Below are positions 37,646 through 53,967 of a stretch of 64,000 bases of DNA, piece by piece. Positions within the stretch are counted from its first letter, which is position 1; each line of letters starts with the position of its first letter. Where the stretch lies: UHGV virus genome UHGV-2111131; one strand, given 5' to 3'. The position numbers and the translations under genes were made by a program. The stretch comes from a virus. The notes under the pieces are model-generated. The model was not told the origin of the DNA. It saw nothing but the letters and a program-made list of their open reading frames with translations, and ran no database searches.

Positions 37646-37662
37646 TAATTTATTAGAGCAAT
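37646..37662 (-). promoter_or_regulatory. C1 operator (reverse complement ATTGCTCTAATAAATTA)
   Basis: 16/17 consensus match in the c1-coi promoter region. Confidence 0.65.
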
Positions 37663-39881: not shown

Positions 39882-40442
39882 ATGAAAACAATCGAACAAA
39901 AACTTGAACAGCGCCGCGAGTGGCAGAAGGCAGCCAGAGAACGAGCGATCGCTCGGCAACGGGAAAAGTTGGCTGACCCCGCCTGGCGAGAATCGCAATA
40001 TCAGAAAATGCGGGATTCTATCGACCGCCGTATCGCTAAACAGAAAGAGTGCCCACCAGCCAGCAAAACGCGGAAAAGTGCGGTAAAAATAAAATCTCGT
40101 GGCTTGAAGGGACGAACACCGACGGCAGAGGAACGGCACATAGCCAATGCTCTTGGCGCTCTCCCCTGCATTGCGTGCTATATGCATGGAGTAATATCTG
40201 AAGAGGTGTCTCTGCACCATATTTCCGGTCGTACCGCGCCTGGTTGTCACAAAAAGCAATTGCCACTTTGTAGATGGCACCACCAGCATGCAGCACCGGC
40301 TGAAGTAAGAGCAAAATACCCCTGGCTGGTCCCTGTTCATGCCGATGGTGTGGTTGGAGGCAAGAAAGAATTCACCCTGCTGAACAAGTCAGAGATGGAG
40401 TTACTGGCTGACGCCTATGAGATGGCAAACATCATGCACTAA
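39882..40442 (+). CDS. ref: HNH-family endonuclease (recombination enhancement function), 186 aa
   Basis: HNH-like Cys/His region (CIACYMHG...HHISG...CRWHH); size and position match P1 Ref. Confidence 0.8.
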   Translation: MKTIEQKLEQRREWQKAARERAIARQREKLADPAWRESQYQKMRDSIDRRIAKQKECPPASKTRKSAVKIKSRGLKGRTPTAEERHIANALGALPCIACYMHGVISEEVSLHHISGRTAPGCHKKQLPLCRWHHQHAAPAEVRAKYPWLVPVHADGVVGGKKEFTLLNKSEMELLADAYEMANIMH

Positions 40443-40631
40443 TAAATATATTATTTTTAATGATAAATGATTGACAACTGACAAGTGACTTCAGTCAGAA
40501 TCATCACATGCCCGGTACGGATGGATCCCTTTTCAAATATTCCATGGACGGCACAGTCTGAGTACCGGGCGCTACCTTCAGTTGTATTGCTAAGCCGCCG
40601 CTGGTGGCTTTTCTTTTTTGTAGGGGGCGCT

Positions 40632-41273
40632 ATGGATAAGAAAATATGCGTTGTTTCGATGAGCGTCGGCAAACCGGCGTCAATGACTGCTGCATGGATC
40701 AATAACGAGCTGATAATGGCTGAGCGGACCAGCTACCCTGAACGCCGCCGCGATATGGAACTCCAGCTGCTGCGCGAATTGCGAGAAAAAGAGGAAAAGG
40801 GTTTTATCGTGCTGGTGGAAGAGGAAAACAGCTTTATTACTGGTCGAGTTGGCCAGCGTGTAAGGTTGCGCGATCCCTTCATGAACGGCAGGCCGGTACT
40901 AATTGAGGCAATGCAGATTTATAAGGAGCTGGAACGCCAGAAAGCAATCAAGTTACCGCGCAAGGAATCCGGCAAATACATCCTCCACCAAAGCATCTTC
41001 GATTCCGAACACGATAAAAAAGGCGATGAATTTTTCAACATCAACTGGAGCGAAATAACGACAGAGCATGTTCTGACGTTACTATGTTGCTTTGCGACGG
41101 AATACAACAACGTTGCCAGCGCCGACTACATCAGGGCAATGGCAGGAGAAGTTGATGCCCGCCAGGAATCATCGTTACTAAGCCCTCTGATTAACATAAT
41201 TCGCGGAACCCAAACACTGGCACAAAAACGGGTGCCTAAAGGGGAGTTAACTGGAAAAGGAAATTATCTATAA
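40632..41273 (+). CDS. mat: Hypothetical protein, 213 aa
   Basis: Position after ref; name by synteny as recalled. Confidence 0.5.
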   Translation: MDKKICVVSMSVGKPASMTAAWINNELIMAERTSYPERRRDMELQLLRELREKEEKGFIVLVEEENSFITGRVGQRVRLRDPFMNGRPVLIEAMQIYKELERQKAIKLPRKESGKYILHQSIFDSEHDKKGDEFFNINWSEITTEHVLTLLCCFATEYNNVASADYIRAMAGEVDARQESSLLSPLINIIRGTQTLAQKRVPKGELTGKGNYL

Positions 41274-41329
41274 ACGTCAATGCATTAGGGTATACTTCTC
41301 CATAGAACTATAAGTAAATGGAGTAAGTA

Positions 41330-42637
41330 ATGAGCGAATATGTTGAGTTAGCATACGCTGCCGCTACAAGCAGGCTTTGTCTATTTACCGGGACTGGCTT
41401 TTCAAAGGCAGTCTCGAACGGTGAAGCTCCAACGTGGAAGGAACTATTAAAAAAAGTTTGCAGCAAAGTTCACAATGCCAAAAAGTTGGAAGACACGTTA
41501 TTCCCTGATGATAAACCACCAGCACTGAGTCTTGAAGAAGCCGCACAAATACTATCTTTGAAGCTCAATATTGAGGGTAAGTCGATTTATGATGAAATTG
41601 TTGACATCATATCTCCAATTCAACTTGGAGAAGACATATCAAATATAAAAGATTTTTTCCAAAAAAACTCATTCCGTGTCATTACAACAAATTATGACAA
41701 GTTGGCTGAATGCTTGGTTGGAGATGAAAGTGTGCAGTCTATCACGCCCGGTCTGCCAATTCCAAAGTATCCATCCAAGGTGAAAATATATCATGTTCAT
41801 GGTTCTATTGATTCGCCAAAAAATATGATTGTCACTTCAGATGATTACTTCAGATTTATAAATTCCGATACTTATTTTTCACGAAAACTTAGTACGATGC
41901 TGCATGAAAATACAGTTGCGATATTAGGGTATTCTTTAAGCGACACAAATCTTAAAGCAATTATAAATGACTATAAAAAATTTTCGAAAAATAATGCCCT
42001 GTGCTCTAATATCTTTTTGATATCTCGCAACAAAGTAAGTCAAGATATGAAGGATTATTACTTCTATTGCTTTGGTATAAGGGTAATTGACAATACAGAA
42101 ATAGATTGTTTCTTTAGTCGATTAAGTTATAAGATTTCTCTCATTAAAGACATCATTGAAAGAGCGCGCGAAAATATCAGAAAAGTTGTTTCGGGGGCTT
42201 ACACTTATAAAAATGAATATCTTAAATTAGAGGATTCATTTTATCAAATTATATCATCAATTATATCGGAAGGTTTAGATTGGAATGATGATAAAGTCGT
42301 TTCTCTTTTCGAAAGGATAATAGAAAAAAAGAGAAAGTTAACAAGGAATAACGGAGCGTGGGAGCAATATGAACAGTTGGCAAAATGGCTTATATATTTT
42401 GGAAGCATCATAGAGGTTAGCAATACTAAGTATGAAAAAACATATTTAGACGCAGTTGAATACTCGATGGGTCATATGAGTAAAGAAAGGAATTGGGGAG
42501 TTTCTTGGCATGCTTACAGAGCTTGGGAAACACGATGGCCTGCAATAATTGCCTCAAATAGATTAATGATAAAAAACCACATTGAAACATTAGGCACCTT
42601 GAAGGACGCCAACCTTATAGTTAAGAATATAGTGTAA
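41330..42637 (+). CDS. SIR2-like (SIR2_2/DSR-type) NAD-binding/NADase domain protein with uncharacterised helical C-terminal domain, 435 aa; candidate defense gene
   Basis: GTGFS (res 21-25) with P-W just after, TTNYD (119-123, N121 codon at 41690..41692) and YHVHGS (H157 codon at 41798..41800); GGAG RBS; strongly AT-rich relative to flanks. Confidence 0.75.
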   Translation: MSEYVELAYAAATSRLCLFTGTGFSKAVSNGEAPTWKELLKKVCSKVHNAKKLEDTLFPDDKPPALSLEEAAQILSLKLNIEGKSIYDEIVDIISPIQLGEDISNIKDFFQKNSFRVITTNYDKLAECLVGDESVQSITPGLPIPKYPSKVKIYHVHGSIDSPKNMIVTSDDYFRFINSDTYFSRKLSTMLHENTVAILGYSLSDTNLKAIINDYKKFSKNNALCSNIFLISRNKVSQDMKDYYFYCFGIRVIDNTEIDCFFSRLSYKISLIKDIIERARENIRKVVSGAYTYKNEYLKLEDSFYQIISSIISEGLDWNDDKVVSLFERIIEKKRKLTRNNGAWEQYEQLAKWLIYFGSIIEVSNTKYEKTYLDAVEYSMGHMSKERNWGVSWHAYRAWETRWPAIIASNRLMIKNHIETLGTLKDANLIVKNIV

Positions 42638-42654
42638 TTGTGGTCGATAAAAAT

Positions 42655-42682
42655 TTATCGGGCAGATAAAACTGCCCGATAA
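42655..42682 (-). terminator. Hairpin TTATCGGGCAG-ATAAAA-CTGCCCGATAA; T-rich run follows on the minus strand
   Basis: Perfect 11-bp inverted repeat between the convergent SIR2-like gene and lxc. Confidence 0.6.
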
Positions 42683-42683
42683 A

Positions 42684-42932
42684 TTAATCAGCATTCAGGA
42701 GCAATGCGTTATCTATGATGATCTGCTCCCATTCTTCGAATGCCCGGTCACGGACGCCCTGGGGAACGCTGTTAGTTTTGAAATCGACGACCGTCCGCCA
42801 TTTTCCGTCCGGACGGTACATGCGCAGAGCTTTACTTCCCCCTTCCCTGCGCACCTCAACGTTATGCTTGTCAGCAAACTCTTGTAATGCTCGTAGCGTC
42901 CCATGCTTTACTGTGTAGTATCGCTTTTTCAA
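42684..42932 (-). CDS. lxc: Small protein, 82 aa (TTG start with GGAGAG RBS)
   Basis: Position between the cargo slot and ulx/darB; name by synteny. Confidence 0.5.
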   Translation of the reverse strand: MKKRYYTVKHGTLRALQEFADKHNVEVRREGGSKALRMYRPDGKWRTVVDFKTNSVPQGVRDRAFEEWEQIIIDNALLLNAD

Positions 42933-43369
42933 GTTTTCTCTCCAGCCTGTGCTAAGGCTTCAACTTCCAAATCGTAAGACTCAAACTCATAGTCCTGGTC
43001 GTCAACCTCTTCAGGCACTGGCAGTAAATGCCAGGCTGAGTATATCTGACCATTATCAAAACGCTCCTGGCTGTAGAGCGTCGCGGCTATGAGTGTCAGC
43101 GCCGGGCGGTCATAACGGTAAATTTTGCGAACGTCACGGTCAACGAGACGACCGAAATTACCATAACCGCGCTCCAGTAATAATTTTTTAATTTCCGGCC
43201 AGTATGGGCCATAGCTGCGGTACAGGCGGGGATTTTTCAGTAATCGCCCGCGTAGCCCTGACAGGAAGAAATCAACGTATTCGTCTTCTGTCTTTCCTAA
43301 CAACGCTGTACGCAGTACCGCCTCAAGATATGTTTTATTCGGTTTTATTGTATCAGATAGTGTGGCCAT
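42929..43369 (-). CDS. ulx: Hypothetical protein, 146 aa, immediately upstream of darB
   Basis: Co-oriented with and adjacent to darB. Confidence 0.55.
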   Translation of the reverse strand: MATLSDTIKPNKTYLEAVLRTALLGKTEDEYVDFFLSGLRGRLLKNPRLYRSYGPYWPEIKKLLLERGYGNFGRLVDRDVRKIYRYDRPALTLIAATLYSQERFDNGQIYSAWHLLPVPEEVDDQDYEFESYDLEVEALAQAGEKT

Positions 43370-53950: not shown

Positions 53951-53967
53951 ATTGCTCTAATTAATTT
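53951..53967 (+). promoter_or_regulatory. C1 operator-like site ATTGCTCTAATTAATTT between divergent lyz and ssb
   Basis: 15/17 consensus match. Confidence 0.6.

Follow-up and report, generated by a model that had tools for sequence, protein, structure and literature searches.

Analysis of a 64,000-nucleotide stretch of viral DNA (UHGV virus genome UHGV-2111131, hereafter the window) showed that it is a P1-like phage-plasmid of Escherichia coli, which carries, between the P1 backbone genes mat and lxc, a gene for a 435-residue protein with an N-terminal SIR2 domain and a C-terminal region predicted to form an alpha-solenoid (the SIR2-solenoid protein). By analogy with characterized systems, we judge it somewhat probable that this gene alone constitutes an anti-phage system, which P1-like elements carry as exchangeable cargo and which acts through abortive infection by depletion of nicotinamide adenine dinucleotide (NAD), with the C-terminal domain as the sensor. 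Its location in the slot that holds the res and mod genes in P1 is the most informative fact about it, and one absent from an earlier reading of the DNA letters alone (the sequence-only reading).

Domain layout and conserved residues of the SIR2-solenoid protein

The open reading frame (ORF) list gives the gene an ATG start and a product of 435 residues. It is a real gene and not a chance ORF, because the ratio of nonsynonymous to synonymous substitution rates (dN/dS) among three natural alleles is 0.05-0.18, full-length homologs are found in many phyla, and the exact 435-residue protein is recorded on 555 public contigs. Residues 117-252 match the Pfam family SIR2_2 (PF13289; E = 1.1e-23, 84.4 bits, cut-off 24.5), and no nucleoside triphosphatase (NTPase) domain was detected in the protein by Pfam. 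In a family alignment of 40 sequences, 52-87% identical to the query, T20-G21-T22-G23-F24-S25, N121 and H157 are invariant. A phmmer search of PDB sequences aligned residues 14-282 with the SIR2 domain of Bacillus DSR2 (E = 4.5e-10), pairing N121 with DSR2 N133 and H157 with DSR2 H171. Structural work on DSR2 used the N133A/H171A double mutant as its catalytically dead control (PMC10973363). The sequence-only reading had picked out GTGFS (residues 21-25), TTNYD (N121) and HVHGS (H157) in a 435-residue ORF; all three motifs are where it placed them. Its assignment of a SIR2 fold with the Asn and His of defence SIR2 NAD hydrolases (NADases) agrees with both the SIR2_2 match and the DSR2 alignment.

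An AlphaFold2 model was built from the family alignment (mean predicted local distance difference test score, pLDDT, 86; predicted template modelling score, pTM, 0.71). In it, a Rossmann-type core with a helical lid spans residues 1-255, and residues 258-431 contain helices only. A Foldseek search of the PDB returned DSR2 at the top (E ~1e-12; template modelling scores of 0.70-0.71 for SIR2-only chains), followed by ThsA and KomC. The sequence-only reading had named AlphaFold and Foldseek as checks, and together they gave a SIR2 fold with antiphage NADases as its nearest relatives.

One of the names given by NCBI to these proteins, 'SIR2 family NAD-dependent protein deacylase' (the other is 'SIR2 family protein'), would point to an ordinary NAD-dependent deacylase, i.e. 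a classical sirtuin, acting on plasmid or host proteins. We consider this extremely unlikely. SIR2_2 alone was matched, with no Pfam match to the classical SIR2 family (PF02146) at E <= 0.1, and the 435-residue sequence lacks the CxxC pairs of a Cys4 zinc module. The near structural relatives are, without exception, NADases from antiphage systems, and the gene lies in a mobile cassette of low guanine and cytosine (GC) content with a patchy distribution. Bacterial defence SIR2 proteins form a clade apart from sirtuins (10.1101/2024.09.18.613514), which also counts against a deacylase.

The C-terminal ~180 residues are modelled with confidence as an alpha-solenoid of the HEAT/ARM-like type. The sequence-only reading of this region as helix-rich and unlike SLOG is borne out by the all-alpha model and by the lack of any SLOG or Macro family match. 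A profile of the C-terminal domain found nothing significant in Pfam (best match BBH37, E = 0.026) or among PDB sequences (best chains, E = 0.6), and a BFVD fold search gave no significant match. An NCBIfam match to P12 lipoprotein was rejected as weak and far under its cut-off. HMMER with the C-terminal profile against 1.84 billion cluster representatives retrieved just 96 proteins at E <= 0.001, in which the domain occupies residues ~255-435 of proteins of 406-480 residues, or makes up short fragments. SIR2_2 lay N-terminal to the solenoid in all ten divergent or odd-length matches that were checked. The domain was also considered as a shuffled module, a notion set aside when this exhaustive search returned it behind SIR2_2 or as fragments alone. 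As judged by these profile searches, the C-terminal solenoid domain is private to the SIR2-solenoid family. The solenoid domain alone makes up phrog_35181 (156 positions) and many proteins of 100-250 residues (P0121, P0123, P0125 and others). These are probably for the most part fragments or split genes, and some may be free-standing copies.

The two halves of the protein evolve at different rates. The window allele is present in 40 plasmids at an identity of at least 99%, and other alleles, at 83-87% nucleotide identity, fill the same mat-lxc slot of other P1-like plasmids. Among three alleles, the SIR2 half (residues 1-255) shows 94-95% amino acid identity, a dN of 0.024-0.032 and a dN/dS of 0.05-0.07, and the C-terminal half (residues 256-435) shows 69-79% amino acid identity, a dN of 0.11-0.20 and a dN/dS of 0.14-0.18. 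Such a pairing of a conserved effector with a more rapidly changing second domain is expected of an arms-race sensor, and the comparison suggests such a role; that both halves are under purifying selection overall qualifies this reading. In some allele pairs the first 270-360 nucleotides of the gene, together with the 56-nucleotide leader, are 100% identical, and the alleles are therefore recombination mosaics. Inside the otherwise fast-diverging C-terminal domain, the 40-sequence alignment also contains an invariant, aromatic-rich signature (W344, Q346, Y347, W353, S392-W393, Y396, W399, W403 and N410-R411; residues 344-411, nucleotides 42359-42562). It may serve in core packing, as an interface with the SIR2 domain, or as a ligand pocket.

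The suggestion in the sequence-only reading of a possibly undescribed architecture stood in part. The architecture as a whole is already catalogued, since residues 1-434 match positions 1-434 of the 434 positions of phrog_7567 (function listed as unknown; E = 3.8e-248) and NCBI labels the proteins as above; it is nonetheless unnamed, and no defence-database model describes it. The PADLOC models PDC-S25, ThsA, LmuA, Dsr2 and Dsr1 cover the SIR2 core alone, as do the NCBIfam Dsr1 and Dsr2 models, with scores far under their cut-offs. The PADLOC check named in the sequence-only reading assigned no characterized system to the protein.

The mat-lxc slot and the neighbours of the family

The SIR2 gene is flanked by cre, c8, ref, mat, lxc, ulx and darB, with 96-98% identity to P1-family phages. 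Backbone homology to P1 stops at the stop codon of mat and resumes at the stop codon of lxc (42684). Alignments with P1 and RCS47 delimit a cassette of ~1.4 kb (~41274-42683), consisting of a 56-nucleotide leader, the ORF, and a 46-nucleotide tail with a hairpin (Table 1). A divergent allele has exactly the same leader sequence (100% identity), and the GC content is 38% over the cassette versus ~48-50% in the flanks.

Table 1. Positions of the SIR2-solenoid gene, its domains and its surroundings in the window, and of TIR-domain proteins near homologous genes in three other loci
Feature	Position	Strand	Basis
SIR2-solenoid gene, 435 residues and stop codon	41330..42637	+	ORF list; Pfam SIR2_2; phrog_7567; 'SIR2 family protein' label in 61 plasmids
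SIR2 NADase-type domain (predicted), residues 1-255, Rossmann core with helical lid at ~36-112	41330..42094	+	AlphaFold2, Foldseek, phmmer
GTGFS NAD-binding loop, residues 21-25	41390..41404	+	invariant in 40 sequences; aligns with GAGVS of DSR2
Codon of N121, predicted catalytic Asn in TTNYD	41690..41692	+	invariant in family; aligns with DSR2 N133
Codon of H157, predicted catalytic His in HVHGS	41798..41800	+	invariant in family; aligns with DSR2 H171
C-terminal alpha-solenoid domain (predicted), residues 256-435, proposed sensor/regulatory domain	42095..42634	+	
Cassette leader, 56 nucleotides, ribosome-binding site GGAG at 41320-41323	41274..41329	+	alignment with RCS47 (empty slot) and P1
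Hairpin, 9-base-pair stem (ATCGGGCAG/CTGCCCGAT), between the convergent SIR2 and lxc genes	42657..42680	.	read from sequence
mat, P1-backbone maturation control gene, directly upstream, probably on the same transcript	40521..41273	+	96-98% identity to P1-like phages
lxc and ulx, P1 backbone genes flanking the slot on the right	42684..43369	-	ORF list, identity, annotations
TIR-domain protein, locus L016	L016:7406-8308	+	
TIR-domain protein, locus L024	L024:7979-8842	+	
TIR-domain protein, locus L040	L040:4462-5208	-	

Comparison of the mat-lxc interval among P1-like phages showed that its content varies. P1 has the EcoP1I type III genes res and mod together with IS5, and the window has the SIR2 gene alone. 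The slot is empty in RCS47, contains a RelA/SpoT-family protein and a hypothetical protein (possibly a toxSAS-type module) in vB_EcoM-673R5 and SJ46, and contains a hypothetical protein and a helix-turn-helix protein in Ro157c2YLVW. In view of these varied occupants, the mat-lxc slot is a cargo hotspot, and its one well-characterized occupant, EcoP1I, is a defence system. The slot intervals compared were 41274-42683 in the window, 3469-9749 in L002, 2624-4465 in L075, 3274-3312 in L076 and 986-2560 in L077. In pRHB16-C13_3 (L079, 52-3018), a TnAs3 transposase gene lies directly upstream of a divergent SIR2 allele, in the usual place of mat; judging by this Tn3-like transposase, transposons also insert into the slot. 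Of 5426 complete E. coli genomes, 699 (~13%) have the lxc-ulx backbone, and 64 have the SIR2 gene, nearly always on plasmids, corresponding to ~9% of P1-like elements.

The occurrence of the family outside P1-like plasmids was examined in 65 loci fetched from one-genome-per-species contigs, 62 of which, from ~60 species, were clustered. They come from Gamma-, Beta-, Alpha- and Zetaproteobacteria, Desulfobacter, two actinobacterial contigs and one metagenome-assembled genome of Bacteroidota, among others. The family has a patchy spread over phyla at 45-60% identity, which is consistent with horizontal transfer, and most of its members are chromosomal, outside recognizable phages. Phage records gave no nucleotide match, and their protein matches were limited to a distant SIR2 core in four phages. 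A 60%-identical homolog in E. coli chromosomes (L003-L006, gene 8001-9311) is located at the end of a lambdoid prophage, just after the integrase; the prophage is inserted beside the ccm cytochrome c maturation operon, and in L005 the homolog is followed by a gene for an AIDA-type autotransporter. The integrase end of a prophage is another classic position of phage-borne defence genes.

ORFs within 4 kb on either side of the SIR2 gene in the 62 loci were clustered all-against-all, and the two nearest neighbours per side were scanned against PADLOC and Pfam. Neighbour families recurred in at most three loci each, and the few recurring ones come from sister species. Two candidate partners were rejected: an 870-residue gene upstream in three Acinetobacter loci is aconitase, and one of 225 residues, located downstream in three Pseudomonas loci, matches no family and is limited to sister species. 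The neighbours in the window are the P1 core genes mat, lxc, ulx and darB, and of these mat, lxc and ulx match no PADLOC model. The SIR2-solenoid family as a whole is standalone, in keeping with the sequence-only reading, which had reported no adjacent TIR, HerA or Argonaute. Neighbours of the family include type I restriction-modification (R-M) subunits, Mrr, dGTPase, AbiU, PD-T7-1, PD-T7-5, a retron reverse transcriptase, PADLOC PDC candidates, integrases and transposases. This qualitative evidence suggests an association with defence islands and mobile elements.

TIR-domain proteins are encoded within two genes of the SIR2 gene in three of the 62 loci (Table 1), in L016 ~100 nucleotides downstream and on the same strand. 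TIR genes are rare, and this number therefore exceeds chance. The protein could then be an analog of ThsA in a Thoeris-like system, with a C-terminal domain that binds a small-molecule signal from a TIR (ThsB-like) protein; on a P1-like plasmid, such a protein would have to depend on a host TIR protein as an orphan effector, or would be inactive. The ThsA models match the SIR2 core, and the invariant aromatic-rich motif could form a pocket, as such a reading would have it. However, the other 59 loci lack a TIR gene in the 6 kb to each side, none was detected in the 64-kb window with a TIR profile, and a profile built from the three TIR domains detected no others, either among the loci or in the window. 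The C-terminal domain is modelled as an alpha-solenoid and not as a SLOG or Macro nucleotide-binding fold, with no SLOG match, and the three TIR proteins differ in architecture and orientation, as expected of unrelated neighbours in defence islands. We therefore regard a Thoeris-like system as unlikely. The TIR neighbours may reflect the coincidence of genes in defence islands, or a rare two-gene variant.

R-M cargo in the same slot can act as an addiction module (see PMC10879196), and deregulated NADases are toxic. The SIR2 gene might accordingly be a plasmid addiction or toxic module, in which a leaky NADase penalizes loss of the P1-like plasmid or of a plasmid-encoded inhibitor. We consider this very unlikely, as no antitoxin-like gene is adjacent or conserved in the 62 loci, and most homologs are chromosomal.

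Proposed function and expression control

The best-supported reading, resting on analogy and context, is that of a single-polypeptide NAD-depleting abortive infection system with a C-terminal sensor. We hypothesize that the N-terminal SIR2 domain has NAD+ glycohydrolase activity, which stays silent until the cell is infected. The alpha-solenoid would bind a product of the infecting phage, most likely a protein as in DSR2, and thereby free the SIR2 domains or assemble them, should oligomerization be involved. Hydrolysis of NAD+ would then leave the infected cell unable to support replication, the infection would abort, and protection against phages would result.

The control of the gene fits this reading less well. 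The SIR2 gene starts 56 nucleotides after mat, and neither a sigma-70-like site nor a terminator was found between the two genes; an own promoter for the SIR2 gene was rejected on the first of these grounds. The region upstream of mat (~40433-40501) is base-for-base identical to the annotated Omat (C1 operator), Pmat and LPmat (late promoter) of P1. The SIR2 gene thus seems, from the sequence, to be co-transcribed with mat from a C1-repressed/late promoter, and is therefore predicted to stay repressed in lysogens and to be turned on at establishment or in the late lytic phase. The window also contains 14 matches to the P1 C1 operator consensus ATTGCTCTAATAAATTT with at most 3 mismatches, versus 0.3 expected by chance (e.g. 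7125-7141, 37646-37662 and 53951-53967), which is consistent with an intact P1-type immunity circuit.

Several points weigh against an anti-phage function of the kind proposed. The main caveat is the predicted repression in lysogens, which appears ill-suited to a gene that protects the lysogen; the sequence-only reading had not noticed this either. In addition, no model in the defence databases (PADLOC, NCBIfam) spans the whole protein, and no published work naming or testing the family was found in a literature search of incomplete coverage. The aromatic-rich signature may furthermore be a ligand pocket, and not a surface that reads phage proteins. The Sir2 homolog of Vassallo et al. appears to be part of PD-T7-2, with a HerA-like second protein, and no PD-T7-2 model is among the PADLOC matches. 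The expression problem may be circumvented by leaky repression, by a cryptic promoter, or by action at another stage than expected.

Action at another stage feeds the alternative that the gene serves the phage in competition with other phages. Here the enzyme would be made with Mat at establishment or in late lytic growth and would help P1 itself. It might exclude competing phages while P1 goes through its own lytic cycle, break down immune signals derived from NAD, or modify a protein of the host or of a phage. The apparent co-transcription with mat from Pmat and LPmat, in a region identical to that of P1, agrees with this, and the gene adjoins the anti-restriction genes ulx and darB. Proximity to dar genes is, however, a fixed feature of the backbone and not specific to the SIR2 cargo, and P1 keeps a restriction system in the same slot. 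Most family members are chromosomal, outside recognizable phages, beside R-M and other defence genes, and the closest enzymes are all host-defence NADases. We consider a role in the service of the phage improbable.

More speculatively, the protein may represent a DSR-type immune protein in minimal form, with an alpha-solenoid of 180 residues that suffices to recognize a phage product and to switch on a SIR2 NADase. It would be held in a slot of P1-like elements that swaps R-M genes, toxSAS-like genes, the SIR2 gene and nothing, and it may use the C1-controlled/late mat operon, so as to act in competition between phages at establishment or in lytic growth and not in stable lysogens only. We put forward this combined version tentatively, as possible but doubtful.

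If an anti-phage function is correct, the SIR2-solenoid protein would be a compact addition (435 residues, one gene, native to E. coli) to the defences that act by SIR2-mediated NAD depletion, and a convenient model for the gating of a SIR2 NADase by a small helical-repeat domain. The mat-lxc slot of P1-like phage-plasmids would be a hotspot of defence cargo, comparable to those of P2 and P4. This is relevant to phage therapy and to the persistence of P1-like plasmids, which often also carry resistance genes. The existence of such a protein would not surprise a specialist, because uncharacterized SIR2-domain proteins are common in defence islands.

Comparison with known systems

The SIR2-solenoid protein does not belong to DSR1, DSR2, ThsA, SIR2-HerA, SPARSA, Avs5, Lamassu, PDC-S25 or the classical sirtuins. 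The best PADLOC match is PDC-S25 (91.6 bits), with phrog_2695 a similar match among the PHROGs; both are predicted single-gene SIR2 proteins of defence islands or phages. However, these profiles have 517-531 positions, of which just ~127-289 (the SIR2 core) were matched, the termini are unrelated, and PDC-S25 is itself a candidate.

ThsA of type I Thoeris (~475 residues) likewise has a SIR2 NADase effector, and its SIR2 core is matched in the PADLOC, PDB sequence and fold searches. The C-terminal SLOG domain of ThsA binds glycocyclic ADP-ribose (gcADPR) from the TIR protein ThsB, whereas the window protein has a predicted alpha-solenoid in this position and, as described above, no ThsB in the window or in 59 of the 62 homologous loci. 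KomC of Kongming (E = 1e-7) and the SIR2-type LmuA of Lamassu also match. Both are SIR2 NADase effectors, and the 433-position LmuA model aligns by its SIR2 part (model positions 14-238) with residues 13-241. These proteins need partners (KomA and KomB; the SMC-like ATPase LmuB with or without LmuC), none of which flanks the window gene, and their C-terminal halves do not match. The gene differs from SIR2-HerA, SPARSA and Avs5 in having no HerA, no short Argonaute and no fused STAND NTPase, its neighbours being mat, lxc, ulx and darB.

EcoP1I occupies the identical mat-lxc slot in a backbone that is 96-98% identical, and both are cargo presumed to protect the lysogen from other phages. EcoP1I acts by DNA methylation and cleavage and is encoded by two large genes in the opposite direction with their own promoters, whereas the SIR2 cargo is one NADase-type gene co-oriented with mat.

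Bacillus subtilis DSR2 is the best match in both sequence and fold, and is likewise encoded by a single gene with an N-terminal SIR2 domain, a GxGxS loop, and the corresponding Asn (N133/N121) and His (H171/H157). DSR2 is much longer, at ~1000-1200 residues, as the sequence-only reading had remarked of both DSR1 and DSR2. The window protein scores 22.5 bits against the DSR2 equivalog NF041819 (cut-off 1400), over residues 117-208 alone, and 26.2 bits against the DSR1 equivalog NF041818 (cut-off 1400). The C-terminal domains of DSR2 and the window protein are not homologous by sequence; the modelled solenoid and the helical sensor region of DSR2 share a broad fold class, a likeness that does not imply homology between them. 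The all-helical C-terminal region of DSR2 binds the phage tail tube protein, which activates the NADase, and the SIR2 domain alone is inactive (PMC10973363). By analogy, the SIR2-solenoid protein would work most like DSR2, as one gene that joins a SIR2 effector to a helical regulatory region.

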